Counted from the first letter of the stretch, positions 368 to 50,291 are shown. The stretch: 53,720 bases of DNA from a virus (IMGVR_UViG_3300025809_000027:1-53720); one strand, 5' to 3'. Notes: generated by a model from the letters alone, not told the origin. Numbers and translations are program-made.

Positions 368-488
368 TAACGGTTTGTATATGAAATGTGCGACATTGAA
401 ATAAGAACTAACTAAATAAAAATACATTAATTATGAAATTAAAAATAGAAATCACAAAAAAGGAAAAGCATTTTTTATATACTTTGTT
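368..488. repeat. attC-like hairpin site A
   Basis: TAAC-GGTTT-GTATATGAAATGTGC ... GCATTTTTTATATAC-TTT-GTT; the loop contains ATG 433. Confidence 0.75.
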
Positions 489-648
489 ATGCTTTGTTTT
501 TTTAATATTAAACATGGCTTGCGGTATAATGATAGGTGTGGAAATATTTAAAGACACCAATAGCTTCGGATATAACGCAACCTTAGTATATACAGCTTTA
601 AGTTGCTTTTTCTATTATTATGTAATGTTTCAGCGAAATAAAGCATAA
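433..648 (+). CDS. Small two-TM membrane protein (cassette cargo)
   Basis: Two hydrophobic stretches; its stop TAA is the TAA of the TAAC in site B. Confidence 0.7.
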   Translation: MKLKIEITKKEKHFLYTLLCFVFLILNMACGIMIGVEIFKDTNSFGYNATLVYTALSCFFYYYVMFQRNKA

Positions 649-770
649 CGTTTATGGTATGGTGACGTTGCGACCTTACAGCATGGACTTAATTAATAAA
701 CATAAAACTTTGAGATATGAATAAAGACAATAAGAAAACAGAAACCGAGCAATGCACTATACCAAGTGTT
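646..770. repeat. attC-like hairpin site B
   Basis: TAAC-GTTTA-TGGTATGGTGACGTTGC ... GCAATGCACTATACCA-AGT-GTT; the loop contains ATG 717. Confidence 0.8.
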
Positions 771-998
771 AGCAGTAGTATTTCTCTATGGATGGAAGGA
801 TTCTCTGCTACAGGACAAAGACAAGGTGCAAGTATGATAGGAACTTACCAAGCGAAAAACCTTGATGATGCGGTTAAACAGTATATGGAAACCCATAAGG
901 GCGATGTTGATTGGGATAGGTTTGGCAGAGGCAGACACGCTATTTGGGCTTGTGAAATATTTGATAATGAAAAAGAAGCCCGTAAATCGTTTGGCTAA
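717..998 (+). CDS. Hypothetical protein (cassette cargo)
   Basis: 93 aa ORF; residues EQCTIPSVSSS are encoded by the right arm of site B. Confidence 0.75.
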   Translation: MNKDNKKTETEQCTIPSVSSSISLWMEGFSATGQRQGASMIGTYQAKNLDDAVKQYMETHKGDVDWDRFGRGRHAIWACEIFDNEKEARKSFG

Positions 999-1007
999 TA
1001 TTACTGC

Positions 1008-1046
1008 TAACTACCGTATATGCGTACTAAAAAGTGTCTTAACGGG
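1008..1046. other. Array-terminal half site (putative attI-like landing site)
   Basis: TAACTACCGTATA occurs four times; 1006-1046 is identical to 11596-11636. Confidence 0.6.
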
Positions 1047-1082
1047 CATATATGTCGGGATAATACAACTTTTACAGTATAT

Positions 1083-2222
1083 TTAAAAATCAGGACTCTG
1101 ATCTATAATCATCTTCCGATTCACTTCTTTAACAACAGTCGCATAACGCTTTGTCATCAATTCAGATTGATGCCCGTACAAGTCCCTCAGAGCTTCCAAA
1201 TCAATACCTGCCAAAATTTTCGCATTAGCTCCTGTATGTTTCATGGCGTATAAATTCACATTAATTCCTAAGTCTTTTTTTACCAGAGCATTCCAATTAC
1301 GATTAGAAGTATCACGCTTTAACATTCCAGAAGCAGGCAAAAACTCAATTCTATTACGCCCACGCTTTCCAGTTGGAATGCGTCCAAACAAATAAAAGTC
1401 TTCTGGATATTGACTTAAATCCATAGATTCAAACTCCTTCAGTAAATGGTGATTGATTGGAACTACTCTTTGTTTTTTACGTCCCTTCGTAATGTGAGCA
1501 GGCATTACAATAGTTTGGTTTTGAAGATCAATCATTCCCACTCTTAGCCGTGTCAACTCAACTGGTCTTATTCCTGTATGGAAAAGCGTCACCACAAATC
1601 TGTAAAATCCTAAATGTTTTTTTTGAAGGTGTTTTTTGATTCTCGTTATTTCGTTTGGAGTTGCTGGACGGTTGGCGGTGCTTTCTTGTTCTGGTAGTCT
1701 TTTGATTTTAAAACAAGGGTTGTTTTCAAGTAAATCCCACTGCATAAGCTCCGTGAAGATTGCAGACAAATACCCCAGATTCTTGTTGTAAGCTTTGCTA
1801 GACCAGTTCCTATCTTTTTTCATGCGCTCCATTACGAGCTTCACATGAAGCCGTCTAACGTCTTTAATATAAAGATTTGAAAGTCTTATGTCTTTGATGG
1901 CTTGAATTACAAAGCCTAAAGCATTACTATAATCGTGGAATGTTTTCTTTGCAATAAACTCTTTCTTTTTTTCTAAAGCGAAATTCAGAGCATCGATTAA
2001 AGTGTAATTAACTTCGGTCATGGGATTGTCGCTCGACCATCCAGAGGCTATATTTTTTTTAAAAGATTTAAGAAGTACGTTAGCGGCTGCCTGACGTTTT
2101 TTAAGGTTCTTAATCCTATTAAGGTTCCCTGTAAAGCGTCTTTGCTTCCCGTTAATTGAGAAGTAAACATACCATCTCGAAGATGATTTGCATAATTTCG
2201 GTGTTGTGATGTTTTGACTCAT
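1083..2222 (-). CDS. int: Phage tyrosine integrase 1
   Basis: TGIRPVEL (R), YAMKHTG, LYGHQS...RYA (H, Y) motifs; adjacent to an att region. Confidence 0.92.
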   Translation of the reverse strand: MSQNITTPKLCKSSSRWYVYFSINGKQRRFTGNLNRIKNLKKRQAAANVLLKSFKKNIASGWSSDNPMTEVNYTLIDALNFALEKKKEFIAKKTFHDYSNALGFVIQAIKDIRLSNLYIKDVRRLHVKLVMERMKKDRNWSSKAYNKNLGYLSAIFTELMQWDLLENNPCFKIKRLPEQESTANRPATPNEITRIKKHLQKKHLGFYRFVVTLFHTGIRPVELTRLRVGMIDLQNQTIVMPAHITKGRKKQRVVPINHHLLKEFESMDLSQYPEDFYLFGRIPTGKRGRNRIEFLPASGMLKRDTSNRNWNALVKKDLGINVNLYAMKHTGANAKILAGIDLEALRDLYGHQSELMTKRYATVVKEVNRKMIIDQSPDF

Positions 2223-2262
2223 TTAAATTAAATTAAATGCCTACAAGCGTGTCAATCATCAT

Positions 2263-2469
2263 AACCGTACATATTATGTACAGTTTGGATATAAACCCCT
2301 GATAAACAGGGGTGTATAAACCAAAGCGGAGAGTAAGGGAGTGTCTTTTTTAGAAACTCAAAAACTCAACTGATTGAATTGCAATGTTTTACATTTTGCG
2401 TTAGTATTCGTTTTTTGCTATTTTTGGCGTAATTATGTACAGTTTTTATGTACAGTTTTTATGTACCAG
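2263..2469. other. attP-like region 1: core 2326-2340 flanked by TTATGTACAGTTT arm-type repeats
   Basis: Arm repeats at 2263-2273 (inverted), 2274-2286, 2433-2445, 2446-2458 and 2459-2469 lie on both sides of a tRNA-like core. Confidence 0.75.
2326..2340 (-). other. tRNA 3'-end fragment (tRNA-Ser-like), att core; not a full tRNA
   Basis: The reverse complement TCCCTTACTCTCCGC fits a T-stem 3' strand, acceptor 3' strand and G discriminator. Confidence 0.6.
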
Positions 2470-2471
2470 AT

Positions 2472-2597
2472 TTAAACCATTTTTTTAATTAATGGAATAC
2501 CTTCTTTTAATCCACCAATGGTTATATCCAAGTCTTCAATACGACATCTTAGCTTATCGATTGCTTCGATTAACTCGTTTAATTTTTCTTCATTCAT
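2472..2597 (-). CDS. 41 aa hypothetical protein (not in the ORF track)
   Basis: MNEEKLNELIEAIDKLRCRIEDLDITIGGLKEGIPLIKKMV; preceded by the shared AAAACCCTACTTATT leader. Confidence 0.55.
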   Translation of the reverse strand: MNEEKLNELIEAIDKLRCRIEDLDITIGGLKEGIPLIKKMV

Positions 2598-2657
2598 AAT
2601 AAGTAGGGTTTTAAGGGTTTTTAATTTAGGTTTATGTAGTTATTAAATTTTTTAAGA

Positions 2658-2825
2658 TTAATCTAGCTGACTAGCAATTGCAATCAAAGATCCAATAACA
2701 GAAAGCCAACAAACTATTTGCACCCACGTACTTGTAATAGATGCTGATTTTGATGCTGATTTTAGGTAGCGATAGATTCCTTCCTGTAATTCTCTATCGG
2801 AGAGTTCGGGTATTTTCTTTGTCAT
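2658..2825 (-). CDS. 55 aa protein with a C-terminal TM helix (not in the ORF track)
   Basis: MTKKIPELSDRELQEGIYRYLKSASKSASITSTWVQIVCWLSVIGSLIAIASQLD; has the shared leader. Confidence 0.6.
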   Translation of the reverse strand: MTKKIPELSDRELQEGIYRYLKSASKSASITSTWVQIVCWLSVIGSLIAIASQLD

Positions 2826-2877
2826 AATAGTAGGTTTTAGGTTTATGGTTTAGTTTAAATAGATCGGGGCAAGATTC

Positions 2878-2906
2878 TAAAGTGGTCAAATTCGACCACT
2901 TTAAAA
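2878..2906. repeat. Near-perfect palindrome TAAAGTGGTCAAATTCGACCACTTTAAAA, copy 1
   Basis: Identical 29-mer at 12740-12768. Confidence 0.8.
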
Positions 2907-2919
2907 TCTATGTATGATA

Positions 2920-3402
2920 TTAAAGACAGTAAGTTTTATAACTAACTATTCCAGAAGACGCAATATTAATTTTTCTTGCATAAGTTTTAAAGGTAAAACT
3001 ATAGATGTTTCCATCATAAAGATTTTCTATATAAGCAAATACGCTCCTGTCATAATCATAATTAGTTATCAATTTTACAAATTCATTTTTCTTCACAATA
3101 TCAATAATACCATTTTCTATGTAATGAAACCTCCAAGACTTATCTTTTTGGCTATTTTTCTCTCGGGTGATTAATTCACCTGTATTTCCTTCTTTTGTTT
3201 TTAGGATGTTATTCCCATTGACATCTCTAAAGTAAATACCTAATGTTTTGTTGTTTAAAACGATTGTTACAATTAAAGGGTGCTTGTCTTTATTTAAGTC
3301 TAAGTAATTGCCTTCAGTTTTGTAAATATGTTGTTTTGAGTTGGTTTTTTTTTCGTCTTGATCTGTTAGACTGGTTTCAGTCCATTCGTTTAAATTAATC
3401 AT
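2920..3402 (-). CDS. Hypothetical accessory protein in the immunity region
   Basis: 160 aa ORF co-oriented with the repressor and integrase. Confidence 0.7.
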   Translation of the reverse strand: MINLNEWTETSLTDQDEKKTNSKQHIYKTEGNYLDLNKDKHPLIVTIVLNNKTLGIYFRDVNGNNILKTKEGNTGELITREKNSQKDKSWRFHYIENGIIDIVKKNEFVKLITNYDYDRSVFAYIENLYDGNIYSFTFKTYARKINIASSGIVSYKTYCL

Positions 3403-3423
3403 AATAAGTAGGTTTTAAGGGTT

Positions 3424-3801
3424 TTAAATTATAGGGATTATTAAGTTTTTGTTTTTATCTAGTCTAAGTTCCATGATGCTGAGTCGTGCTTCTTGACCTT
3501 TAATAAGTTGTTCTAAAAGCTCAACTCTTTTTAATAGTAAACTATCAATAGGCGTTTCTTTTGGTTTAACAAGCATCGTTCCTTTGCCTGTTAGAATCCA
3601 TTCATAACTGATCTCGGGGTATCTGTTTGTTATTTTTCTAGCAAGTCCTGCTGAAATTCCATTGCGACCGTTTATGACGTTATCTATCATTGTGCCACTT
3701 GTGTGTCCTATTGACATACCAAAAGCCCTTCTACTCAATTTAGCATGAGATATAATGGCTAGCATTATTTCTGGGAAACTTTTTTCTTCTTGATTTTTCA
3801 T
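3424..3801 (-). CDS. CI-like phage repressor (HTH, no S24 peptidase domain)
   Basis: HTH followed by YPEISYEWILTGKG, typical of Bacteroidetes prophage repressors; divergent from the early operon. Confidence 0.8.
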   Translation of the reverse strand: MKNQEEKSFPEIMLAIISHAKLSRRAFGMSIGHTSGTMIDNVINGRNGISAGLARKITNRYPEISYEWILTGKGTMLVKPKETPIDSLLLKRVELLEQLIKGQEARLSIMELRLDKNKNLIIPII

Positions 3802-3957
3802 TTTTTAAATTTGTTTAAGTTATTGATAAACAGGGGTTTATTAATCCTTTAACAAAATTTTATATTTTTTTTAACAAATTAGTTTGTCAAAAGATGTTAT
3901 TTGATGTTATTAATTGTTACATTTGTAATGTAAAACTTTTATAACCGTAAATATAAC
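3802..3957. promoter_or_regulatory. Divergent lysis/lysogeny switch region with TAACA/TGTTA repeats and a TACATTTG -7 box
   Basis: TTTAACAAA twice, GATGTTATT twice, TACATTTG at 3918-3925. Confidence 0.6.
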
Positions 3958-4290
3958 ATGAAAACCGAGACCTACAATAAAATTTTAGAAAAAATCAAGT
4001 GCGACGAGTCAACCGAACAGTTAATCGGATTTAACGGCAGTTTAGGGAGTTATGAAATTAATTTCTATGCAGAACAAGAAAACGGATACAAGCTTCAGGT
4101 TGATTCTTTCGGATATAAATCTAAAAGCGGTTGGATTCAGCAAGAACCAACAACCGAGCAAATAGAGCTTATGGAAAAGAAAATTCAAAACGCAGTTGAC
4201 TGCATCCAAAGTGAACCAAAAGAATTAGAGTCTACAAGCCTTAGAAATCTTTACCAAGAAAACGGAGTATCACCACTAATGTTTATTTAA
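3958..4290 (+). CDS. Hypothetical early protein
   Basis: First ORF of the rightward operon. Confidence 0.7.
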   Translation: MKTETYNKILEKIKCDESTEQLIGFNGSLGSYEINFYAEQENGYKLQVDSFGYKSKSGWIQQEPTTEQIELMEKKIQNAVDCIQSEPKELESTSLRNLYQENGVSPLMFI

Positions 4291-4301
4291 AAAATTTAAC
4301 A

Positions 4302-4586
4302 ATGCCACAAATCGGAGAACCAATTACCAAAGAGCAAAAAGACCTTTTGAATAGGCTTTTAACAACCCAAGACTTAATAGACGTGTCTACAACTGTTGAT
4401 GCCAGCTACTCAACAGTCAAGAGTCTATTTTACCGCACAGCATCTGTTACGGAAGAAAACCAACAAGCCGTTTATAAAATGATTAGCCGTGCTTTTCAGA
4501 AAGCAGAAGAATCTCTAGTGTATTTCACTAAAGCAAAATCTGAATTAGAAGCTATGCTTCCAAAGGTTCAAAACAAAACAGCATAA
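4302..4586 (+). CDS. Possible Cro-like HTH protein
   Basis: Helical pattern DLIDVSTTVDASYSTVKSLF and position near the switch. Confidence 0.45.
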   Translation: MPQIGEPITKEQKDLLNRLLTTQDLIDVSTTVDASYSTVKSLFYRTASVTEENQQAVYKMISRAFQKAEESLVYFTKAKSELEAMLPKVQNKTA

Positions 4587-4595
4587 CCAAACGGT

Positions 4596-4850
4596 ATGAC
4601 CGACACCATAACCATACCGACAGAATTACTAAAAGATATAGTTGATGTAAACAATCGACTAGTCGAACATTACAACCGCCTACAAGCGTGTTCAAATCGA
4701 AGTCCCGAAGTTAAGGGGTCGGGAACTTCACTTAAGGGGGGTAAGGATAGACCAAGCCTCCCTTCTAAAAAAGTAATCCTTGAAAACAGAACTAAAAAAT
4801 ACGTAGAAAAAAAACTAAAAGAAATTCAATCTAAAAGAAATTCAATCTAA
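4596..4850 (+). CDS. Hypothetical protein
   Basis: ORF in operon; its 3' end lies within the tandem repeat. Confidence 0.6.
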   Translation: MTDTITIPTELLKDIVDVNNRLVEHYNRLQACSNRSPEVKGSGTSLKGGKDRPSLPSKKVILENRTKKYVEKKLKEIQSKRNSI

Positions 4851-4894
4851 AAGAAATTCAATCTAAAAGAAATTCAATCTAAAAGAAATTCAAT
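4815..4894 (+). repeat. Perfect tandem repeat, 5 x CTAAAAGAAATTCAAT (16 bp)
   Basis: Counted directly. Confidence 0.95.
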
Positions 4895-4920
4895 TATGAA
4901 CCCAAAAAAACCCAACAATT

Positions 4921-5346
4921 ATGAATCCAGAAATTAAACAAAAACTAGAAGAATTAACTGATTTAATATTGAAATCCACCAAAGGAGATCAAAACAATGT
5001 AGATGCTACAATCAAAGGAAATCAATACAATCAAGGTGTTACAATCGGAGGATGGCAAGACAATGTAGATGCTACAATCAAAGGAATTCAAGACAATGTA
5101 GGTGCTACAATCGAAGGAAGTCAAAACAATCAAGGTGTTACAATCGGAGGATGGCAAGACAATGTAGATGCTACAATCAAAGAAAGTCAAGACAATAGAA
5201 GCGCTACAATCAAAGGAAGTCAAAACAATCAAGGTGCTACAATCGAAGGAAAAATGATTATAGATTCCAAAACAAATTTTAAAAAAGGTATTTGGAAAGT
5301 TGAAAAAACAGGGTTGGTTGAATATGAATTAACTCCTAAAAAATAA
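4921..5346 (+). CDS. Protein with 8 x 11-aa repeats (probable beta-solenoid)
   Basis: GxQxNxxATI[KEG] repeated eight times. Confidence 0.75.
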   Translation: MNPEIKQKLEELTDLILKSTKGDQNNVDATIKGNQYNQGVTIGGWQDNVDATIKGIQDNVGATIEGSQNNQGVTIGGWQDNVDATIKESQDNRSATIKGSQNNQGATIEGKMIIDSKTNFKKGIWKVEKTGLVEYELTPKK

Positions 5347-5351
5347 ACATT

Positions 5352-5702
5352 ATGAACCCAACAACCCAACTTAAACCAATCACCGCAGAAGGTGAGAAAG
5401 AATTTCTAACTGAATTAAGCCTTTCAGATGTGTATGTAAGCACAGAAGACAGGCGAGCAACTGTAACAACATTATGGCGGTATGACATCGAGCGAAAGTC
5501 AAAGTACATAAATTTCAATGTTTACACCAAACAGGCTAGAATCACCCTTTACAATGACGAAGGCAAAGAGCTAGGTGTCTATGATACTCTTGTGAATGAC
5601 GAATGGACTGTTGAAGACAAGGGAATTAATTTAAACGACACAATAATCCCTCAATATGCAGAGGTGGACTTAGAAGATAAATCAATAATCATTAACTGGT
5701 AA
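5352..5702 (+). CDS. Hypothetical protein
   Basis: ORF in operon. Confidence 0.7.
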   Translation: MNPTTQLKPITAEGEKEFLTELSLSDVYVSTEDRRATVTTLWRYDIERKSKYINFNVYTKQARITLYNDEGKELGVYDTLVNDEWTVEDKGINLNDTIIPQYAEVDLEDKSIIINW

Positions 5703-5763
5703 CTTAACTAACCAACCCCACTAATTAAGAAAATCAACAAAAACTTAAATAAACCCAACAATT

Positions 5764-6282
5764 ATGAACCCAACAATTCATTATTTAAAAGCTCGTAACA
5801 GCGACTTCCTTGCTAGTACAGACTTAGAAGTCTTTGAGCTTGAAGGAAAATCAAAAATATTAACAGTTAAAAACGTTGAGTACAAGGAAAATTTCAAGGT
5901 CAACGGAAGGATCAAACCCAAAGGCGTGGTGATGTACTTTGAAGAGATTTATGCAAAACCTTTAATCGTGAACACAACCAATTCCACTTTAATAAAAGAA
6001 GCGACAGGTGTTATTGACGCTAAAAAATGGATAGGTTTTTCGGTAGAATTTAGATTTGATGATAAAGTAGAAATGAAAATCAGCAAAACCGAAACCAGAA
6101 AGGGCGGCATTAGAATTAAGAGTGTAAACACAAACGGACTTGCAGCCCCTTTAACAGACGTTAAAACACGAATAGATCAATGTACCAAGAAAGTTGAAGT
6201 CATGGCTATATGGCAAGAATTAACGGAGCAGGAACAAGCCCAGCATAAGCTTCAGATTTCTGAAAAACATAAAACACTTTAA
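5764..6282 (+). CDS. Phage protein, possibly ssDNA annealing/binding partner of the exonuclease
   Basis: KPLIVNTTN...KWIG motif; lies directly upstream of the exonuclease and SSB-like genes. Confidence 0.45.
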   Translation: MNPTIHYLKARNSDFLASTDLEVFELEGKSKILTVKNVEYKENFKVNGRIKPKGVVMYFEEIYAKPLIVNTTNSTLIKEATGVIDAKKWIGFSVEFRFDDKVEMKISKTETRKGGIRIKSVNTNGLAAPLTDVKTRIDQCTKKVEVMAIWQELTEQEQAQHKLQISEKHKTL

Positions 6283-6284
6283 TT

Positions 6285-7196
6285 ATGGATTTTTCAAACT
6301 ACCTGTTTCGAGCCCACATGGTTGGCAAGATTATAACCGTGCCCAAGCCACTAACCGAAAACCAAACAAAGACCTTAGAGTCTTTTAAATTAAAGGGATA
6401 CCCAAATATAACGGACAAACAAAAAGAAACCTTTGTAAGCCTTGAAAACAAGCTGATTGAAAGTAAGAAATTCAAACTTACAGATGCGAACAAAAAGACA
6501 TTATCGGGATTAGTTTACGCTACAAAATACGGTAGAAGGACTGAAATAAATTCTGATAAAATAACCAAAGGTTTGACCGTTGAAAAGGACTGTCGAGACA
6601 TTCTGTCGAGAGTTTCAAATTTGTTCTTGACTCACTCGACTGAAAGGAAAACAAATGAATGGGTGAGTGGTGCAATTGACATGGAGCCAAGCGAAGTAAT
6701 TGTAGATATAAAGTCCTCGTGGAGTTGGGAATCATACTCTAAAATACTTGAAGATAGCGCAAATGAAATCTATCTAAGACAACTAGATTCATACATGGAT
6801 TTATGGGCTAAAAAAGATTCTTTGCTTTGCCATATACTAACAGACACGCCTTTTAAATTGGTAGAAAAAGAAATAAAAAGCCTTGACTACAAGTACAACA
6901 TTCTAAACATGGAAGGTGATGTAAGAGACGAAAACATTGAAGATGTTGTAAAGGTCGTTACAAATCATATTTTTTCAAGAAAAGGTTTGGAGGAATTCTG
7001 TCAGCACTCAACCAACGTGCATATTGAATGGTTCAAGGACTTTATCGAAATCCCAGAACAGGACAGGGTTCACATGATACCACACGCTTACGACCAAGAA
7101 AGGATTGAGCAAAGAAACAAAAGCATAATCCTTTCACGAGAGTACATGAACACAGTAAAATCAATCAATAATTTTAATCCTAAATTAATCAAATAA
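6285..7196 (+). CDS. YqaJ/lambda-exo-like PD-(D/E)XK exonuclease
   Basis: KGLTVE...SGAID...IVDIKSSW...YLRQLDSYM motifs. Confidence 0.75.
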   Translation: MDFSNYLFRAHMVGKIITVPKPLTENQTKTLESFKLKGYPNITDKQKETFVSLENKLIESKKFKLTDANKKTLSGLVYATKYGRRTEINSDKITKGLTVEKDCRDILSRVSNLFLTHSTERKTNEWVSGAIDMEPSEVIVDIKSSWSWESYSKILEDSANEIYLRQLDSYMDLWAKKDSLLCHILTDTPFKLVEKEIKSLDYKYNILNMEGDVRDENIEDVVKVVTNHIFSRKGLEEFCQHSTNVHIEWFKDFIEIPEQDRVHMIPHAYDQERIEQRNKSIILSREYMNTVKSINNFNPKLIK

Positions 7197-7198
7197 CA

Positions 7199-7564
7199 AT
7201 GAAAATACAAGGCAAAGTAAAAGTAATCGGACAAGTACAAGAAATCGGATCAAAAGGATTCAAGAAACGTGAGTTAGTTATAACCGTTCCAGACGAGAAA
7301 TACCCTCAACACATTCTGGTGGAGTTTATTCAAGACAAAACAAGTCTTCTAAACGATATAATCGTTGGTCAAAACATAACCGTACACATCAACATCAACG
7401 GTCGAGAATGGATCAACCCACAAGGCGAAGCGAAGTATTTTAATGCGATTCAAGGATGGAAAATAGAAATAGACCCAAAGTCTGAGATTCCTGAAGCACC
7501 ATTTGAAGCTGCAACAGATTTGACAGTAGGCGAGCCAAACGATTTACCATTTTATAACCTATGA
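7199..7564 (+). CDS. DUF3127 family OB-fold protein (SSB-like)
   Basis: GFKKRELVI...YPQHILVEFIQDK...NINGREW...YFNAIQGWKI with an acidic DLPF tail. Confidence 0.85.
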   Translation: MKIQGKVKVIGQVQEIGSKGFKKRELVITVPDEKYPQHILVEFIQDKTSLLNDIIVGQNITVHININGREWINPQGEAKYFNAIQGWKIEIDPKSEIPEAPFEAATDLTVGEPNDLPFYNL

Positions 7565-8043
7565 AGACACTTCATTTAACTTTAAAAAAACAATGGTTCG
7601 ACATGACTAAATCAGGTATAAAAACCGAAGATTATAGAGATGTTAATAAGTATTGGTTTAAGAGACTTATTTTTAAATGGCGTGATGTGATGCTTTTTCA
7701 CGGATATAACGATCTAACTGACGAAATCGCTATATATATTATTGAAAACTCCAAGATGTATGGGTTTAAGCCTTTTAAAAGTAACATAATGACTTTGGGC
7801 TATGCAAAAAAAGGAGACAAAGAAAGGACTTTAGAATTAGAGCATAAGGGCATTGAAGTAGGGACAGGCAACCCTGAATGGGGCGCAGAGCCAAACAAGA
7901 TGTACTTTGTTATCAAGCACGGGAAAATAATAAACACGGACTTGCAAGAAGCAATTAAAAAAGCCAAACCAAATTTGGATAAAATAAAAGATGTTGACAA
8001 GCATCTTGATGAAATTAGAAACAGTAGAATAAAAACAATTTAA
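7561..8043 (+). CDS. ASCH domain protein
   Basis: TLHLTLKKQWFDMTKSGIKTEDYR is the ASCH GxKxxExR signature. Confidence 0.8.
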   Translation: MKTLHLTLKKQWFDMTKSGIKTEDYRDVNKYWFKRLIFKWRDVMLFHGYNDLTDEIAIYIIENSKMYGFKPFKSNIMTLGYAKKGDKERTLELEHKGIEVGTGNPEWGAEPNKMYFVIKHGKIINTDLQEAIKKAKPNLDKIKDVDKHLDEIRNSRIKTI

Positions 8044-8054
8044 AACCTAATCCT

Positions 8055-8378
8055 ATGCAAGCAGAAATCGACTTTACACACCAAAGAGACTTATCAAGAG
8101 GTAGGCATAATGAGAACTCAATAATTGCTCATGAACGATTAAAGCCGTTTAAAGAAACTATGAGAAAACAAGTAGAACAATGTGTAGATGGGCATAGATG
8201 TACACTGGAGATTGCTGAGATGTTAGATAAACATCTCCATAAAATAAGCGGTCGATTCACTGCTTTAAAAGCGTCAGGAGTTATCGAGCAAACGGGACGT
8301 AAAAAATATAAAGGAAGTACATATACAATATATAGTAAAGCAAACACCAGTAGATACTTGCTGTTGGGGCAGGAGTGA
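8055..8378 (+). CDS. Winged-helix DNA-binding protein
   Basis: TLEIAEML...ISGRFTALKASGVIEQTGRK. Confidence 0.65.
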   Translation: MQAEIDFTHQRDLSRGRHNENSIIAHERLKPFKETMRKQVEQCVDGHRCTLEIAEMLDKHLHKISGRFTALKASGVIEQTGRKKYKGSTYTIYSKANTSRYLLLGQE

Positions 8379-8445
8379 AAAATAGGTAAAGTTGGTTTTT
8401 TGGTCTCAAGGTACAGGTTATAGCCTCCCTGTACCGTGCCAAAAA

Positions 8446-8635
8446 TAACGTTACTTGTGTATGATTAGTAGCGAATTATTAAAACTAAAACTTATAAAAA
8501 TGAAAGAAATAAACACACAAATTATCCAAACAGGATTTACACTTGATAGATTGCACCAAGATGGCAAAATAGACAATGAAGCCTACACAATTTTAAAAAA
8601 TAGGAATAAACAAGCTATTAATTATACACGTTGTT
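8446..8635. repeat. attC-like hairpin site C (long loop)
   Basis: TAAC-GTTACTT-GTGTATGATTAGTAGC ... GCTATTAATTATACAC-GTT-GTT; the loop contains ATG 8500. Confidence 0.8.
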
Positions 8636-8799
8636 CTGAGCTTTTGATTTGCCTTGACAATGGTAATTATGAAATGCTAACAAACTATAAATTATACAAG
8701 TTAGTTTCTGAAAGTAAAGGTTATTATAATCTATATGATGATGATGGAAAATTAGTTCAAATGAGCAAAGTTCGCTTCAAAAAAGTAGTGGCAAATTAA
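8500..8799 (+). CDS. Hypothetical protein (cassette cargo); ATG 8500 preferred over GTG 8455
   Basis: A-rich leader before ATG 8500; QAINYTRCS is encoded by the hairpin arm. Confidence 0.7.
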   Translation: MKEINTQIIQTGFTLDRLHQDGKIDNEAYTILKNRNKQAINYTRCSELLICLDNGNYEMLTNYKLYKLVSESKGYYNLYDDDGKLVQMSKVRFKKVVAN

Positions 8800-8807
8800 T
8801 TACTTAG

Positions 8808-8851
8808 AACACCCGTATAAAAGCCGTTTCAATGGCGGTTTATACTAAGTT
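8808..8851. repeat. Short attC-like hairpin site D
   Basis: AAC-ACCC-GTATAAAAGCCGTT-TC-AATGGCGGTTTATAC-TAA-GTT with an extra G in the 3' arm; its reverse complement resembles site H. Confidence 0.8.
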
Positions 8852-8963
8852 ATTTTTTTAATAGAACAAAACATGAAAAAACTAAAAGTATTAATAATAT
8901 TCCTGTTTGGCGAAAGAGTCAAAAGCAAAAGAAAATTTTGGAATCCAGAAATAAAAGGAACTA

Positions 8964-9185
8964 GTGGATGATGTCTTAATAGTCCCTGAGCTTATTAAAT
9001 CATCAAAAGGCAATAGGTACTATATTTTTCGACCCAATGGACAAGAAGTAGCGATAGAGATTAAAAATAATATTCTAGACCCTCAATTCCCTCTCACTCA
9101 AATTGAAAGAGAATTTATTTACAGAAATATACAACCGTTTAAAACGAACAACCCTGAATTATTAAAGATTAAAATAAATGGCTAA
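8964..9185 (+). CDS. Hypothetical protein
   Basis: ORF overlapping the start of the replication gene. Confidence 0.55.
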   Translation: MDDVLIVPELIKSSKGNRYYIFRPNGQEVAIEIKNNILDPQFPLTQIEREFIYRNIQPFKTNNPELLKIKING

Positions 9186-9930
9186 CCGATTAACAAGTAC
9201 CGACAAATATGCAGATTCGTGGTTTATTGAATTAGAAACGATAGAGAAGCTTGTGTTTTATTACTTAATTGACCACGTAGATAATGCAGGCTTTTATGAA
9301 ATATCGATAAGACACATACAATTTCACTTAGGAATTAGTAAGGATGAAATTTTAAGGGCTATAAAGGGGCTGTGTAGGGGTTTATTAGGGGCTGATTCTG
9401 AAATTAAAAACGGAGATAAAATATTTTTAAAGAATTTCTTAAAACACCAGAAGATGCAACCTTTAAACCCTTTTAACTCTTTTCATTCCAATGCTTTAAA
9501 GTCTTTTGAGTTGAATATTGATTTTGTAAATAAACACCCTTTTATTCAAAAATTAAAGGTTTACGGTGAAAAAAAATTAGATGGAAAAGTTGTAAAAACA
9601 ATAGATACAAATTTAATTAATTACATAAATAAAAAACAGGGGCTAGAAAGCCCCTTAGTAGAAGTAGAAGTAAAAGTAGAAGTAGAAGTAAAGGATATTC
9701 CAAATAAAAAAGAGTTTTTAGAATTTGCAAAATTGAAAATTGAAAATATCGACTTGGAAGATGTGGGATTGAAATACGAAGCATGGAAATCTAGTGATTG
9801 GCATACAGGCGGTGAAAAACCTCGAAAGATTAAGAATTGGAAAACAACGCTGTTAAATACTCTGCCGCATTTAAAAAAAACAACCGTAAAAAAAACAGGA
9901 AAACTTAACGCATATAACCCGAACAAATGA
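9178..9930 (+). CDS. Phage replication initiator
   Basis: N-terminal wHTH-like region (DSWFIEL...YLIDHVDNAG), low-complexity linker, C-terminal KIKNWK motif; internal iterons; followed by a loader ATPase. Confidence 0.75.
   Translation: MANRLTSTDKYADSWFIELETIEKLVFYYLIDHVDNAGFYEISIRHIQFHLGISKDEILRAIKGLCRGLLGADSEIKNGDKIFLKNFLKHQKMQPLNPFNSFHSNALKSFELNIDFVNKHPFIQKLKVYGEKKLDGKVVKTIDTNLINYINKKQGLESPLVEVEVKVEVEVKDIPNKKEFLEFAKLKIENIDLEDVGLKYEAWKSSDWHTGGEKPRKIKNWKTTLLNTLPHLKKTTVKKTGKLNAYNPNK
9354..9655. promoter_or_regulatory. Putative replication origin iterons
   Basis: Four AGGGGCT-like repeats at an 11-bp period (9354-9393) and an inverted pair AGGGGCT-AGAA-AGCCCCT (9638-9655). Confidence 0.65.
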
Positions 9931-10682
9931 TTTCAACTAGAAAATACAGACTGATGAAGCGGTTCAGAGGAACGCTGACAACTGAGCAAGAAAGCCAAAT
10001 ATCTGAGTATGAAAATTCTACCCTGTCCGTAAAATTCAGCGAACCAGAACCAGAGGAAATACCCCTCACGAGACTGCCATTCGACTGGTTACAAAGAATG
10101 TTTATGAAGTGTTGGAAAATCAACGAAGGAAAAGATTTAATCTTCACAGAATCTACGAAACCAATCTACAGGGCTTTGACTCAGTATTTCGCAAGGAGTG
10201 AAAATTTTACAAACACGAATATTACCACAAATATACCCGAGCTTAAAAAAGGGCTTTTAATTATTGGCGATTATGGATGCGGCAAAACATCAATGCTAAG
10301 AGCTTTTCAAATGGTGGGTAAGGCACTGCTGCCAGATCCTATACTTTGGTTTAATAGCGTGTCCTGTAATGCCTTAGTAATGGAGTTTGAGGGCATGGAC
10401 ACAAAAGATAAATCAGCAAAGAAACATTTCTTTCAAAAATACAACAAAGCTGCTGTAATGTATTTTGATGATTTCGGCACAGAATCCAATGCTTCAAATT
10501 TTGGAATTAAAAACTTAATGAAAGACATTCTGGAAGAAAGGTATGCGAATAATAAGCGAACATTTTTGACAAGTAATTTATCACTACCAGAAATTCAAGA
10601 AAAGTACGGAGACAGAGTGTATGACCGACTTCAAGAAATGTTTAACATAATTCAAATGTCTGGGGATAGCTTCAGACGTTAG
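9927..10682 (+). CDS. DnaC/IstB-like AAA+ helicase loader
   Basis: Walker A GDYGCGKT, Walker B YFDDFGTE, TSNL, YGDRVYDRL. Confidence 0.85.
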   Translation: MISTRKYRLMKRFRGTLTTEQESQISEYENSTLSVKFSEPEPEEIPLTRLPFDWLQRMFMKCWKINEGKDLIFTESTKPIYRALTQYFARSENFTNTNITTNIPELKKGLLIIGDYGCGKTSMLRAFQMVGKALLPDPILWFNSVSCNALVMEFEGMDTKDKSAKKHFFQKYNKAAVMYFDDFGTESNASNFGIKNLMKDILEERYANNKRTFLTSNLSLPEIQEKYGDRVYDRLQEMFNIIQMSGDSFRR

Positions 10683-10704
10683 ACAAAGCAAAACAAGAAC
10701 TAAA

Positions 10705-11028
10705 ATGAGCCTAGAAAAAATAACACCAAAAAACACGGAGTACGCAAAGCAGACTTTAAGAAATAGAGGTGATATGTTTAGCGTCTATATTTTAAAGCTA
10801 ATAGAAAGCTTTGAAAACTCGAAAGACAACCCGATCAAAGACAATCGAATAGTGAGCGACCGAACGTTTGCATATCGTTTAAAGTCTCATCTGAAAGATG
10901 TTAGAGCGGAATGTCAGATGGGACAGGAGGAACTCGAATATCTTACAGGGGTTGCAGACAGGCTCTTAGAATATCAAAAACAAACAATGCCAGACGATGA
11001 GAAATGGTTTTTTAAGAATCTTCAGTAA
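10705..11028 (+). CDS. Hypothetical protein
   Basis: ORF whose stop codon is the TAA of site E. Confidence 0.7.
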   Translation: MSLEKITPKNTEYAKQTLRNRGDMFSVYILKLIESFENSKDNPIKDNRIVSDRTFAYRLKSHLKDVRAECQMGQEELEYLTGVADRLLEYQKQTMPDDEKWFFKNLQ

Positions 11029-11116
11029 CGGGTTTGGCTATGATTATGTAGCCTTGAAACACAGAACTTTGAATTAAATATAAACTTTAATAAGGGTATT
11101 AATTATAGCCCTTGTT
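11026..11116. repeat. attC-like hairpin site E
   Basis: TAAC-GGGTTT-GGCTATGATTATGTAGCC ... GGGTATTAATTATAGCC-CTT-GTT. Confidence 0.8.
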
Positions 11117-11132
11117 AGCAACTTTTAAAATT

Positions 11133-11276
11133 ATGGATTATACAATAACTTATACTTATAAAGACAAAGAAGACACTATACTATTACAAGATACGCAAAA
11201 CATACTCGGAGCAATAGGGCAATTTTACGAAGACCATGTTAGAGAATGTAGAATAATAAAGATTGAAGAATACTAG
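11133..11276 (+). CDS. 47 aa cassette cargo protein (not in the ORF track)
   Basis: MDYTITYTYKDKEDTILLQDTQNILGAIGQFYEDHVRECRIIKIEEY fills the space between sites E and F. Confidence 0.65.
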   Translation: MDYTITYTYKDKEDTILLQDTQNILGAIGQFYEDHVRECRIIKIEEY

Positions 11277-11295
11277 TAATTTTTATTGTGGGTAA

Positions 11296-11480
11296 AACGG
11301 TTTGTGTATGGGTAGGTTTTTGACTTTGAATAATGAACTAAATTGATAGATATGGTACAAGAAATAGAAATGACAAAAGAAGAGCAAATGACAATGTATA
11401 TGAAATGCTCGAAAAAAGAACTGTGTGAAATGCTGATTGAAGCAAATAGGCACTTAAAAAACTTACCTATACACGTTGTT
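11296..11480. repeat. attC-like hairpin site F (long loop)
   Basis: AAC-GGTTT-GTGTATGGGTAGGTTTTT ... AAAAACTTACCTATACAC-GTT-GTT; the loop contains ATG 11352. Confidence 0.8.
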
Positions 11481-11600
11481 ACCCAACAAAGTGAACTGGT
11501 TTGTGATTGTTTGCCAATGAGTACGCAAGTAAGCACTATAAATGGTAGATACATTTGCTGTACTTGTAATAAACCACTCTTATCACAAACTTGTGGCTAA
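11352..11600 (+). CDS. Small Cys-rich (Zn-binding?) cassette cargo protein
   Basis: CDC...CCTC; the stop TAA overlaps the terminal half site. Confidence 0.65.
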   Translation: MVQEIEMTKEEQMTMYMKCSKKELCEMLIEANRHLKNLPIHVVTQQSELVCDCLPMSTQVSTINGRYICCTCNKPLLSQTCG

Positions 11601-11636
11601 CTACCGTATATGCGTACTAAAAAGTGTCTTAACGGG
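11598..11636. other. Array-terminal half site, second copy
   Basis: Identical to 1008-1046. Confidence 0.6.
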
Positions 11637-11752
11637 ATTGTATAAGGAACGTTGCGTTTAGGAAACCAAAAATTAACGATTAGAAATAAAGAAAATTAAT
11701 ATTAACAGACCTTTGGTATAGCACAAATTAGCAATGTTTTTTATACGGTGTT
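11630..11752. repeat. attC-like hairpin site G
   Basis: TAAC-GGGATT-GTATAAGGAACGTTGC ... GCAATGTTTTTTATAC-GGT-GTT. Confidence 0.8.
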
Positions 11753-11803
11753 ACCCACTTTTTAAAAAGCCGTGCGTGAGGTACGAGGGCAAATACACAA
11801 ACT

Positions 11804-12730: not shown

Positions 12731-12739
12731 AGCAATATT

Positions 12740-12768
12740 TAAAGTGGTCAAATTCGACCACTTTAAAA
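12740..12768. repeat. Near-perfect palindrome, copy 2
   Basis: Identical to 2878-2906. Confidence 0.8.
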
Positions 12769-12791
12769 AACTAAAAAAACTAAAAAAAACA

Positions 12792-13112
12792 ATGAACATA
12801 ACAGATAAAATAGAAAAAATAATAGAAGAACTAGAAAAAGAAAAAGGAACAAAACAGGATATTACCTGGCATCAAATAGCTATAAGATTAGCTCAAAATA
12901 CAACAAAATCGTTAACCGCTGATGAATTGATAAAATCGTTAGGTACGCCAGAACTTGAGAATGAATACATACTAAAACCAGATAAGGACGGAACTTGGTG
13001 GATAGAACACAAACACGTTGGAAGTGGCGAACCATTAAAACAATGGTTAACAAATAGAGGAATATGGGAAACTTATCCAGAAGATCCCGCTCCGCAAAGT
13101 CTCCCGACTTAG
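12792..13112 (+). CDS. Hypothetical protein (ATG 12792 preferred over GTG 12744)
   Basis: A-rich leader before ATG; ends just before the half site at 13118. Confidence 0.6.
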   Translation: MNITDKIEKIIEELEKEKGTKQDITWHQIAIRLAQNTTKSLTADELIKSLGTPELENEYILKPDKDGTWWIEHKHVGSGEPLKQWLTNRGIWETYPEDPAPQSLPT

Positions 13113-19608: not shown

Positions 19609-19641
19609 CGTGCTTTTCCCGTGCTACTTACGTGCTACTTA
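19609..19641 (+). promoter_or_regulatory. 11-bp-period CGTGCT repeats (putative late activator site 1)
   Basis: CGTGCTTTTCC CGTGCTACTTA CGTGCTACTTA; also at 28242 and 40614. Confidence 0.7.
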
Positions 19642-19707
19642 AAAATGAATACTTACAAAAGGCTATATTTTTGGGTCAATTAAGTATAATTTTTAAAAAA
19701 AGATAAG

Positions 19708-28274: not shown

Positions 28275-28310
28275 AAAACATAAAAAAAGGATTCCCCTTA
28301 AATTTCAGCC

Positions 28311-40613: not shown

Positions 40614-40657
40614 TGTGCTACTACCGTGCTTTTCCCGTGCTTTTCCCGTGCTACTTA
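40614..40657 (+). promoter_or_regulatory. 11-bp-period CGTGCT repeats (putative late activator site 3)
   Basis: TGTGCTACTAC, CGTGCTTTTCC x2, CGTGCTACTTA. Confidence 0.7.
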
Positions 40658-40711
40658 AAAAGTCATTTTAGAAATTCCATATATTTTTGAATGAAATAAA
40701 ATCTAAAAAAG

Positions 40712-47795: not shown

Positions 47796-47805
47796 GGTCG
47801 AGCGT

Positions 47806-48087: not shown

Positions 48088-48132
48088 TAACAGTTGCTAA
48101 ACCGCCATTAAAACGGCGTTTAGCTTTGTGTT
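48088..48132. repeat. Short attC-like hairpin site H (opposite orientation to A-G)
   Basis: TAAC-AGTT-GCTAAACCGCCATT-AA-AACGGCGTTTAGC-TTTGT-GTT with one extra base. Confidence 0.8.
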
Positions 48133-48142
48133 GTAAATAATA

Positions 48143-48696: not shown

Positions 48697-48697
48697 C

Positions 48698-48835: not shown

Positions 48836-48876
48836 TGTTTTTTAGTGTATATAGTATTTATTTGCCTTCATCTTAT

Positions 48877-49086
48877 TTAGGGTTTAGTTTTAAGTGATTC
48901 AATTAATTGGTCAGCAATCCGAACTGCAAATCCTGATGCGTCCTCGTGTATATTAAATCCTCCTGCAAATAATCCTTGCATTGCTTTAGCTGCAAAGTAT
49001 TCTCTTTTAGTCACCCCTAACTCTTGTTCCCATACTCCTTCTTTTTGGCTTATTGGGTGTATGAATTTTGATTCTGTTTTTGCCAT
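48877..49086 (-). CDS. Conserved small phage protein
   Basis: GVTKREYFAAKAMQG motif, widespread in phages. Confidence 0.75.
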   Translation of the reverse strand: MAKTESKFIHPISQKEGVWEQELGVTKREYFAAKAMQGLFAGGFNIHEDASGFAVRIADQLIESLKTKP

Positions 49087-49105
49087 AATTATATTTATTT
49101 AGGGT

Positions 49106-49306
49106 TTAGTTTGTTTTTAAAGGTTTTGCATATTTTGGTAATTCATTTTTTACTTCATCATAATTAGAAACACTTATTTTAGCATCCCAATTACCAGATT
49201 CAGTTCCTAAAAATTTAACGTCTTTAAAGTACTTTTTTACAAAAGGTTTAAATTCATTTCTTGTAAATAAGTTTCTTGTGTGTGTGTAAGTTAATGTAGT
49301 TGTCAT
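49106..49306 (-). CDS. Hypothetical protein
   Basis: First ORF of the leftward operon, divergent from the HTH gene. Confidence 0.65.
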   Translation of the reverse strand: MTTTLTYTHTRNLFTRNEFKPFVKKYFKDVKFLGTESGNWDAKISVSNYDEVKNELPKYAKPLKTN

Positions 49307-49457
49307 AACCTTTGTTTTAAATTATATTTAAATACAAATAATATCATTATTATTAAAGCAAAAATACAAAACATTTAACACATAACAAAATAATATTTAC
49401 ATTAATTTACTAATAATCTCGTTTTATTTTGTATATTTGCTTAAAATAAAGATATAA

Positions 49458-49724
49458 ATGAGCTTATTAAGGTTAAATGAGATATTAGATAAAGATTATA
49501 CAGGCAGGGCGTTGGCTAAAGAATTAGGGGTCACGCCTAATACTGTGAGTAATTGGGTTAAAGGTAAATCAACACCAAGTGGTGACGACTTACTGAGAAT
49601 CGCCAAAGCCCTAGACGTGGATGTAAGAGATCTTTTCCATTCCACGAAAACAAAGGAAGCAGACGATATTTTGAAAAAAGCAATAAATGACTTGCAAGTC
49701 GTTTATTCTAAGATTAAAAAATAA
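49458..49724 (+). CDS. XRE-family HTH regulator, second copy
   Basis: Near-identical to 75-344. Confidence 0.9.
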   Translation: MSLLRLNEILDKDYTGRALAKELGVTPNTVSNWVKGKSTPSGDDLLRIAKALDVDVRDLFHSTKTKEADDILKKAINDLQVVYSKIKK

Positions 49725-49734
49725 AACAACTAAA

Positions 49735-50028
49735 ATGGAATTAATACACACATACAGAGGTGCTAGAGAATTAAAGCATATACGGTTTGGTTTTGATGAC
49801 GAGAAAGAATTTATAAATAGATTTAACTTATCAATTATAACTGCAAAAAAACTTTGCAACTATTTAGAAAAAAATAACAAAGTTGTAGACATGACGGAAA
49901 GCTATGACCCGCAATCTGGTTGGAGTGGCTTTAACTTCATCATAGGAGACCAAGACCTTTCTGTGAATGGTTTTTGCTTTAGTCCTGAACGGGTGGATAG
50001 TTTTTTAATAAAGAATAAAGATAACTAA
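49735..50028 (+). CDS. Hypothetical protein (ATG 49735 preferred)
   Basis: A-rich leader; avoids overlap with the HTH gene. Confidence 0.65.
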   Translation: MELIHTYRGARELKHIRFGFDDEKEFINRFNLSIITAKKLCNYLEKNNKVVDMTESYDPQSGWSGFNFIIGDQDLSVNGFCFSPERVDSFLIKNKDN

Positions 50029-50035
50029 AAAACAA

Positions 50036-50230
50036 ATGAGCATTATAACCCTAGAAGGCAAGGCGTATGAAGTAAGCGAAGCACATCTTAAAATGCTACT
50101 CGATAAACAGAAACAAATTAATGATAAGCCATACTATCACGGAAGCGATGTTGAAATGGACGGCTTTATAAATACGCTAAAGCCATCATTCAAATGCCTT
50201 GGTTATATTGAATTTGACTTTAGACTTTAA
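50036..50230 (+). CDS. Hypothetical protein
   Basis: Ends 2 nt before site J. Confidence 0.6.
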   Translation: MSIITLEGKAYEVSEAHLKMLLDKQKQINDKPYYHGSDVEMDGFINTLKPSFKCLGYIEFDFRL

Positions 50231-50232
50231 GA

Positions 50233-50291
50233 TAACGGACTTGGGTATGAATAAGCGATAGCGACCCGTAGGGTTATTTATACCCTGTGTT
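50233..50291. repeat. attC-like hairpin site J
   Basis: TAAC-GGACTT-GGGTATGAATAAGC ... GTTATTTATACCC-TGT-GTT. Confidence 0.8.

Follow-up and report, generated by a model that had tools for sequence, protein, structure and literature searches.

The viral genome IMGVR_UViG_3300025809_000027, an entire virus record that comprises 53,720 bases at 35% G+C (hereafter the window, meaning the whole stretch of DNA analysed), carries nine hairpin-forming sites (A to I) that are probably attC-type recombination hairpins of the same family as the sites in cassette arrays of Bacteroidota chromosomes. In the window they are likely to represent small clusters without an integron integrase, comparable to clusters of attC sites lacking integron-integrases (CALINs), in the early or accessory regions of a marine phage near the Cellulophaga phages.

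Nine sites share a common hairpin anatomy

All nine sites follow one plan, in which TAAC(G) is followed by a short unpaired spacer, a stem usually starting with GTATA, a loop, the return stem to TATAC, two to three bases and (T)GTTA. The loop ranges from approximately 7 to 150 nt in length (for coordinates, arm pairs and model scores see Table 1). Eight of the sites lie on the plus strand among plus-strand genes and site H lies on the minus strand among minus-strand genes, and three clusters (A-B, C-D and E-F-G) each span less than 1 kb. Folds, arm duplexes and the consensus structure contained the parts of an attC-like layout, i.e., an inner stem, an unpaired central spacer, an outer box and a variable end. 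AAC and GTT boxes were present in all nine sites, extended to TAAC and GTTA in six of them. At most sites, the unpaired spacer comprised two to three bases on the 5' side compared to none or one on the 3' side. A loose scan for AAC and GTT flanking a stem of at least 9 returned 25 candidates in the window and 4 to 25 across 20 shuffles, so that weak candidates are no better than chance and only the strong, motif-bearing sites stand out. A general inverted-repeat scan allowing G-T pairs returned 716 rows, which were mostly trivial.

G-T pairs favour folding of one strand

An earlier note, made from this DNA alone, had proposed that the arm mismatches are mainly G opposite T on the coding strand and had quoted arm pairs at sites C, F and G as examples. 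These arm pairs are present exactly as quoted, and none of them had a match in 100 shuffles. The bias itself was also borne out: the gene-sense arm duplexes of the nine sites comprised 149 Watson-Crick pairs, no A-C and five other single mismatches, and 30 G-T pairs, which do not represent 30 independent events as the sites are paralogues. In comparison, the antisense arm duplexes contained 126 Watson-Crick and three G-T pairs. Because the product of G and T is close to that of A and C in the base composition of the window (A 0.365, C 0.165, T 0.280, G 0.189), composition does not account for the G-T excess. Approximately half of the G-T pairs were not scattered but occupied two fixed places of the motif, namely G of TAACG opposite T of TGTTA, and G of ..TATG opposite T in TATA... 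Sites such as F and G lack an extrahelical base and have fixed G-T pairs at those places instead. The extra base that the earlier note had placed in the 3' arm of sites D (A opposite GG) and H (bulged G) was recovered in both folds and arm duplexes.

The strand comparison that the note had called for was performed with RNA as well as DNA parameters and favoured the sense strand at most sites, although not at D and H. With RNA parameters, the sense arms exceeded the antisense arms in stability by 7 to 13 kcal/mol at 7/9 sites. When sites were folded whole, the sense strand was better by more than 0.5 kcal/mol in 7/9 (RNA parameters) and 5/9 (DNA parameters) cases, and the antisense strand was favoured in two and none, respectively. 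RNA folds of the sense strand were strong (-11 to -40 kcal/mol). With DNA parameters, long-loop forms were weak, and the outer helix of site A was absent from the DNA minimum-energy fold. A further claim, that the bias flips to the minus strand at site H, holds for the orientation of the site and its extra G and fails for the G-T pairs, as H, like D, carries none.

The hairpin family is widespread in phages

The same elements are found between early genes of Cellulophaga phage phi13:2, a different phage. Site E has a counterpart with 76.5% identity in an intergenic region of phi13:2 whose flanks gave no blastn match, and the stem of the site A homologue in phi13:2 (locus L005, 427-560) differs by compensating changes. 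With a short site as query, blastn detects few relatives, and the family becomes detectable by pattern or covariance model. The strict pattern TAACG-N4-7-GTAT-N20-50-TATAC-NNN-GTTA returned at least 120 low-G+C viral contigs in IMG/VR. Among the matches listed, 82 of 127 have at least nine contiguous pairs, of which the pattern itself implies four. At stem positions 6-12 of the 111 distinct listed matches, without any filtering, we counted 436 Watson-Crick pairs, 156 G-T, 21 A-C and 164 others, and the base opposite G of TAACG, which the pattern leaves free, was T in 92 of these 111. An alignment of 75 sites, pre-selected for pairing with G-T allowed so that the outer columns are conserved by construction, yielded a two-helix consensus with double compensatory changes in 8 of 16 pairs (e.g., GC 27, UA 23, AU 14 and CG 7 in columns 27/69). 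In the 3' flank, the aligned sites share NNTGTTA followed by mixed sequence.

A covariance model (R1), built from phage sequences only and with D, H and I in its training set, recovered eight of the nine window sites on the strands given in Table 1 with filters switched off, and nothing else at E<1; five of the eight were outside the training set, and C was the only site not recovered. In Polaribacter phage P12002L, R1 detected seven sites around methyltransferase genes. An IMG/VR contig of 169,658 bases (L021/G006) carries at least 14 sites on one strand across approximately 30 kb of small genes, at about 80,000-111,500, and its repeats, which are duplicated genes, have a start or end no more than 8 nt from the end of a site. 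All-versus-all blastn of the viral loci revealed few related pairs, too few for mapping many breakpoints. The Rfam 15 covariance models had no match to the sites at E<=1, either in the window or in five chromosomal loci.

Several other functions were considered and rejected. For an intrinsic terminator, a U/T run is missing from the 3' flanks; only site D has a T run, starting 7 nt past the stem. The arms were inspected by eye for the Bacteroidetes -33/-7 promoter consensus and for sigma-54 motifs, with no consistent fit. Short upstream open reading frames (ORFs) starting at a conserved ATG of ..TATG.. were likewise discarded, as site G has no ATG and the peptides would range from 3 to 21 codons.

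The same hairpins form arrays in Bacteroidota chromosomes

The strict pattern also matched many Bacteroidota genome records, and R1 revealed clusters in one orientation as well as arrays in chromosomes of Flavobacteriaceae and other Bacteroidota. In four of the five genomes examined, the best match of the genome to the IntI profile TIGR02249 was encoded at the end of the array. The arrays comprise 12 sites beside a gene for a 378-aa recombinase (L259), at least 53 sites over 40 kb beside a gene for a 430-aa protein (L257 and L258), and 13 (L255) or three (L256) sites beside the best TIGR02249 match; arrays without a recombinase gene nearby also occur (L246, L248). The ORFs between array sites are mutually unrelated and of mixed or unknown function. 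Integron cassette arrays and CALINs are built in this way, and the presence of the same hairpin family in recombinase-linked chromosomal arrays indicates that the window sites are attC-type cassette sites. In line with this kinship, sites C and F have arms nearly identical to those of chromosomal array sites. Under strict filters, matches at E<=1e-4 were present in 45 of the 141 genomes sampled from the family of genome G001.

Separately, we observed a 61-nt variant of the site (apical part ..GAAGCGTAGC..GCTATGATTTC..) that is nearly identical across many different Bacteroidota genomes with unrelated neighbours (loci including L137, L142, L151, L159, L166 and L209). Its conservation across families suggests recent spread or strong constraint. 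With one to two copies per genome by the strict pattern, this variant was considered as a single-copy, dif-like element, an idea that was dropped when the covariance model showed clusters and arrays.

Gene orientation of the folding strand differs between chromosomes and phages

In integrons, the bottom strand is by convention the strand antisense to the cassette genes, and it is the strand that is recombined. For 56 chromosomal array sites, we compared the folding strand with the nearest ORFs and found 98 on the opposite and 12 on the same strand (98 of 110). The model-sense strand was more stable in 45/56 array sites with RNA and 46/56 with DNA parameters, a result that is partly built in, as the model picks the fitting strand and G-T pairs passed the stem filter. 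How the sites are oriented to the ORFs does not depend on the model's strand choice. That the G-T bias is kept antisense to genes in chromosomal arrays argues that it marks a folded DNA strand, the attC bottom strand, and is not a property of mRNA in general. Together with the published IntI1 assay (PMC9892861), the chromosomal arrays thus back the proposal of the earlier note that selection acts on a single-stranded fold analogous to attC. The role in mRNA hairpins that it had offered as an alternative or addition is not tenable as the general cause, given the antisense bias in arrays, and may exist in phages in addition.

In viral contigs, the folding strand coincided with the coding strand of the downstream ORF in 61/62 and of the upstream ORF in 50/59 cases, and six of the seven sites in P12002L lie between annotated coding sequences that are on the same strand on both sides. 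Viral sites begin at the upstream stop codon or within 16 nt of it, and in 21 of 61 cases an ORF of at least 50 codons terminates at the TAA of TAACG itself, compared to 0 and 2 such cases among 61 for the two remaining frames. As a rule, 20-60 nt separate the end of the site from the following start codon. The opposite gene orientation of the folding strand in phages and chromosomes is a robust observation. It is possible that, in the inverted orientation, transcription exposes the non-template strand and lets it fold, or that the G-U hairpins so formed serve a further purpose in phage mRNAs; the reversed orientation is directly testable.

At two sites of the window, the longest ORFs of the region (8500-8799 and 717-998) extend back into the hairpin loop (sites C and B, respectively). 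In these two overlaps between a long site and an ORF with a PHROG match, the match starts past the 3' arm (residues 47-94 of ORF 8500-8799 and 22-93 of ORF 717-998). The true start codons of both ORFs may thus lie downstream of the sites, and the start codon enclosed by the hairpin, as described in the earlier note, may be an effect of ORF calling.

A natural contig lacks exactly one unit

Contigs from four other marine metagenome runs were aligned to positions 1-13000 of the window. One contig of run X4 joins position 8446 to 8808, with three shared letters that are the AAC of site C and site D (depth 9.79; the shorter side comprises 67 letters). This contig lacks exactly one AAC-to-AAC unit, consisting of the body of site C and ORF 8500-8799, which is the outcome expected from recombination between two such sites, albeit observed in a single contig of a single run at 90% likeness, in which the sequence between the two sides is not known. 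Four weaker junctions do not count as evidence, and neither do stretches without coverage in some of the runs. For 10983 to 11121 and 490 to 3861, the anchors were short (22 and 21 letters, respectively); a third, 8478 to 8612 (22 letters), would delete the loop of site C, and a fourth, 5356 to 11679, occurred in three runs with 28 other letters in between.

Observations that depart from classical integrons

Besides the limits given above for the array energies and for the X4 junction, several observations weigh against an assignment of the sites to the attC type. There is no integron integrase in the window, where the two integrases score 48.0 and 46.2 bits on TIGR02249 (cut-off 265) and are ordinary phage integrases. 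The array-linked recombinases reach 179-203 bits on this profile, also below its cut-off, although well above their scores on XerS and invertase models, and 204-232 bits on NF040815 (cut-off 220). They match TIGR02249 in two stretches with positions 180-236 skipped, and their alignment to the sequence of the IntI4 structure 2a3v breaks at residue 176; we take these places to be the location of the IntI-specific insert. Their best solved relatives are archaeal XerA and XerC-like proteins. The defining IntI insert hence seems to be absent, for which reason we do not class the arrays as classical integrons, and they may be served by an enzyme other than classical IntI. Neither the window nor the array recombinases show the combination of an intI gene with the IntI-specific domain, an attI site and an array that defines a complete integron. 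The array-linked recombinases have an N-terminal extension of approximately 100 aa, and their genes are co-directional with the cassettes, a layout described as 'inverted integrase' in the integron literature.

With regard to the sites themselves, the bases outside AAC and GTT depart from the classical RYYYAAC and GTTRRRY in the window and in the aligned viral sites, extrahelical bases occur at some sites only (D and H have an extra G in the 3' arm, B a bulged A in the 5' arm), and D and H show no energetic strand bias toward sense. Phage genes face the opposite way to what classical cassettes require, so that the capture of such a cassette would leave it in antisense orientation. No shared cargo was detected by tblastn of all window ORFs against the sampled chromosomal arrays.

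Table 1 Sites and associated features of the window. Arm pairs are Watson-Crick + G-T; arm energies (sense/antisense, kcal/mol) were computed with RNA parameters; R1 gives the score of the phage covariance model.
Feature	Position	Strand	Length	Arm pairs	Arm energy	R1	Details
Site A, long type	368-489	+	122 nt	16 + 4	-16.5/-8.7	17.2 bits, E 0.04	TAACG, spacer, stem GTATATGAAA.., loop, ..TTTTATATAC, TTT, GTTA
Site B, long type	646-771	+	126 nt	19 + 4	-24.3/-15.5	17.4 bits, E 0.037	TAA of TAACG terminates ORF 433-648; bulged A in 5' arm
Site C, long type	8446-8636	+	191 nt	19 + 3	-23.1/-14.0	missed at E<=10	Arms 8457-8472 / 8614-8629
Site D, short type	8807-8853	+	47 nt		-11.3/-11.8	35.5 bits, in training set	No G-T pair; 1 x 2 loop, A opposite GG
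Site E	11026-11117	+	92 nt	21 + 5	-25.4/-12.9	32.2 bits, E 3e-6, outside training set	TAA of TAACG terminates ORF 10705-11028
Site F, long type	11295-11481	+	187 nt	19 + 5	-26.9/-16.6	11.8 bits, E 1.2 (marginal)	Arms 11304-11321 / 11458-11475
Site G	11630-11753	+	124 nt	14 + 7	-23.6/-11.7	38.4 bits, E 5.9e-8, outside training set	Arms 11640-11655 / 11732-11747
Site H, short type	48088-48134	-			-15.6/-18.0	35.6 bits on - strand, in training set	Between minus-strand ORFs; hairpin homologous to D; bulged G in 3' arm, no G-T pair
Site I, short type	50233-50292	+	60 nt		-18.9/-11.1	40.3 bits, in training set	Subclass with apical part AAGCGATAGCGACCC..GGGTTA, also found in IMG/VR loci
Cassette-like unit	8447-8807	+	361 nt				Body of site C and ORF 8500-8799; missing from the X4 contig
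Phage tyrosine integrase	1083-2222	-	379 aa				Pfam PF00589; context only
Second tyrosine integrase	50917-52122	-	401 aa				Followed by an HSDR_N-domain ORF; differs from the 379-aa integrase
41-nt block	1006-1046	+	41 nt				Bounded by TAAC .. TAACGGG; exact repeat at 11596-11636, just before site G

Relation to known systems

Clusters of attC sites without an integrase have already been published for phages by Qi et al. 2023 (PMC9892861). By the text of that article, 10,705 phage genomes were screened with canonical attC models and integron parts were found in 21; among these was a CALIN with two DNA methyltransferase genes in Polaribacter phage P12002L, which has a Flavobacteriaceae host, and one of its two attC sites was recombined with attI1 by IntI1, on the bottom strand only (PMC9892861). 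The CALIN region described there is the region of P12002L in which R1 finds sites, and the assayed site, attC2, and its 'bottom' strand may correspond to one of these sites and its folding strand. The main text of the article does not contain the name Cellulophaga (PMC9892861). Compared to 21 genomes in this canonical screen, as reported there, our strict pattern alone matched at least 120 viral contigs.

The window sites resemble attC sites and CALINs in their inverted repeats, AAC and GTT boxes, central spacer, inner stem and variable end, in their position between short co-oriented ORFs, often over a stop codon, in that only one strand would be a good substrate, and in lengths mostly within the classical range. 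Unlike attC, the family is unusually fixed in sequence (TAACG, GTATA.G, TATAC, TGTTA), has an asymmetric spacer and contains two fixed G-T pairs, instead of or besides extrahelical bases; in contrast to attC arrays, the folding strand in phages is the coding strand, and some loops reach 150 nt and are entered by the longest downstream ORF. Likewise, the array recombinases resemble IntI (TIGR02249; VchIntIA/IntI4, 2a3v) in their position at the array end in four of five genomes, and differ from it in the scores below cut-off, the skipped profile positions, the likeness to XerA and XerC-like proteins and the N-terminal extension.

In attC sites, the two strands of one site favour different folds through the central spacer, and the bottom strand prefers a straight hairpin exposing both binding boxes, as described in the text of Mukhortava et al. 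2019 (PMC6393395). According to that text and to Nivina et al. 2016 (PMC5027507), strand choice there involves extrahelical bases and spacer purines or pyrimidines, whereas the strand bias of the window family lies largely in G-T pairs within the stems. Among the 12 papers listed out of 121 on attC strand choice, none of the seven that concern attC or integrons contains the word 'wobble'. Two reviews name Bacteroidota among the phyla with integrons and say nothing more. Our literature search, which did not cover all journals, returned nothing on fixed G-T pairs in attC sites, on an inverted orientation in phages or on Xer-like array recombinases, and nothing relevant on hairpins of Cellulophaga phages, on promoter-early stem-loops of phages or on integron-like recombinase cassettes of flavobacteria. 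Phage attC clusters as such are known. What appears to be new is a set of fixed wobbles that mark the folding strand, the reversal of the sites relative to phage genes, their prevalence in phages of Flavobacteriaceae, and an array recombinase that is Xer-like and seems to lack the IntI insert.

Related principles exist outside integrons. The attP site of CTX phage is a folded single strand with two binding boxes that serves as an Xer substrate, and modules of Acinetobacter plasmids are flanked by Xer sites. The elements described here would share with CTX attP and dif modules the Xer-type recombinase and two boxes around a central region; those systems use host XerC/D and one or two sites, whereas the arrays here comprise dozens of hairpins and a dedicated recombinase gene. 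Repeated hairpins between small early genes are also known as promoter-early stem-loop cassettes of T4-type phages and as RNase III sites of T7. Like the elements described here, these hairpins are conserved, follow the direction of transcription and are located at mosaic boundaries. In contrast, T4 and T7 hairpins are not known to have AAC and GTT boxes or recombinase-linked chromosomal kin, or to recombine as single-stranded DNA.

Proposed mechanism and alternative explanations

In the mechanism that we propose, each site would fold as single-stranded DNA through its TAACG/TGTTA box, an unpaired spacer that is longer on the 5' side, the GTATA../..TATAC stem and a variable end. The G-T pairs would stabilise the fold of one strand, with A-C mismatches left on the complementary strand, such that only the 'bottom' strand would be a substrate. 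A Xer/IntI-type tyrosine recombinase of the host would then cut in the AAC box and exchange units; since virulent phages also bear sites, a host enzyme would be required. The sites of this phage are presumably active. Having the folding strand on the coding strand may matter for folding, or may yield stable G-U hairpins in mRNA as a side effect or second use. As a more far-reaching and rather doubtful idea, Bacteroidota and phages might share a cassette system that is a sister to classical integrons, in which an insert-less Xer-like recombinase reads fixed boxes and fixed wobbles in place of extrahelical bases, and the wobbles restrict folding to one DNA strand. Inverted phage sites would then place the recombinogenic strand on the non-template strand of early operons, where transcription exposes it, accessory genes would be shuffled among phages and with host arrays, and the sites would provide phage mRNAs with stable G-U hairpins besides.

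Several features of the phage sites would suit hairpins that are mainly RNA elements, i.e., intercistronic, G-U paired structures for processing, 3' stability or translation gating, whose kinship to attC is ancestry only. The folding strand is the transcribed sense in the phage counts given above and at all nine window sites, the sites are placed just past the upstream stop codon and ahead of the next start, long forms surround that start codon if the longest ORF is taken, and the sense RNA folds are strong where DNA-parameter folds of long-loop forms are weak. We nevertheless consider this explanation unlikely. The same strand bias runs antisense to genes in the chromosomal arrays and cannot serve mRNA there, no Rfam match or U-run in the 3' flanks was found, and the enclosure of start codons depends on the longest ORF, with the PHROG-conserved parts beginning past the 3' arm in two cases. 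Moreover, the AAC-to-AAC loss and the IntI1 assay, as published, are DNA events (PMC9892861). A still less probable explanation, to which we give little credence, is that the sites are conserved boundary sequences at which modules are shuffled by homologous or microhomology recombination, without a dedicated recombinase. It would fit the diverged modules at the ends of the record (see below), which keep their flanks and differ between them in the stretch containing the sites, as well as site E being common to the window and phi13:2 without a blastn match in flanking genes, the repeats bounded by site ends in the 169-kb viral contig, and the three shared letters at the deletion junction. However, homologous exchange requires neither a hairpin nor compensatory stem changes nor strand-specific G-T pairs, the at least 53 co-oriented sites beside a tyrosine recombinase gene point to site-specific recombination, and the junction falls in the one triplet that is invariant across all sites. 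Chance or composition of an AT-rich genome, with the G-T excess as a product of example picking, would explain why the loose scan stayed within the shuffle range. It leaves unexplained that the quoted arms never occur in shuffles, that relatives with covariation exist in viruses and bacteria, and that G-T pairs so outnumber A-C at balanced composition; with compensatory changes, recovery of the sites by a model trained elsewhere and the chromosomal arrays, this explanation is already refuted and retains virtually no probability.

If the sites are attC-type hairpins, their G-T pairs offer a simple, testable physical rule for strand choice, as a G-T pair on one strand is an A-C mismatch on the other, which adds to the roles of extrahelical bases and spacer. 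Sites of this type in phages of marine Flavobacteriaceae appear far commoner than the canonical-model screen suggested, and their prevalence bears on the acquisition and exchange of accessory genes by phages, methyltransferase genes among them, and on the movement of genes between phages and chromosomal cassette arrays. Searches relying on the IntI domain would class the arrays described here as integrase-less, and their enzyme may recognise hairpins differently.

Further features of the window

The genes of the window include a large terminase, a DNA methylase, an RNA ligase-family gene and the two tyrosine integrases. Its closest DNA relatives are Cellulophaga phages; the RNA ligase gene shares 84.8% identity with its counterpart in phage phi19:3, and a megablast search of phage records with the structural genes returned no match. 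The ends of the record (1-3663 and 49384-53720) are diverged copies of one module, comprising a helix-turn-helix gene, small ORFs with attC-type sites and an integrase. Shared blocks are 87-95% identical (1-340 versus 49384-49723, 94.7%; 1005-1184 versus 50736-50915; 3485-3663 versus 53542-53720), and the cargo and the integrases differ between the copies. The two modules represent either a real tandem or two strains that the assembler fused at the ends of a circular genome. The 41-nt block near the 3' end of the integrase gene (Table 1) looks like a 5' half-site and has a diverged copy at 50730-50778. A 16-mer of this block matched four viral loci in unrelated contigs, which look like chance matches and were set aside.

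A match to the PreQ1 riboswitch at 12738-12780 (+) scored 32.9 bits, below the gathering score of 39, and coincides with a near-perfect palindrome that is repeated at 2869-2909. The palindrome is more likely an operator or terminator than a riboswitch; the overlapping ORF 12744-13112 was not assigned to a family in our searches. In the structural gene region, an intergenic sequence of 37-38 nt occurs three times (19608-19645, 28242-28278 and 40625-40661), with two identical copies and a third that is 89% identical, and may be a late promoter or other regulatory site. A tandem repeat with a unit of approximately 99 nt is located at 4980-5250 inside ORF 4921-5346, and metagenome contigs from all four runs jump 130-229 nt at this repeat, which suggests that it varies in copy number. 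Lastly, the summed contig depth peaks at 9549-9982, where ORFs 9178-9930 and 9927-10682 meet, reaching 1445 (X2), 568 (X4) and 165 (X3) compared to approximately 5-30 elsewhere; this stretch is evidently common to far more abundant organisms or elements.

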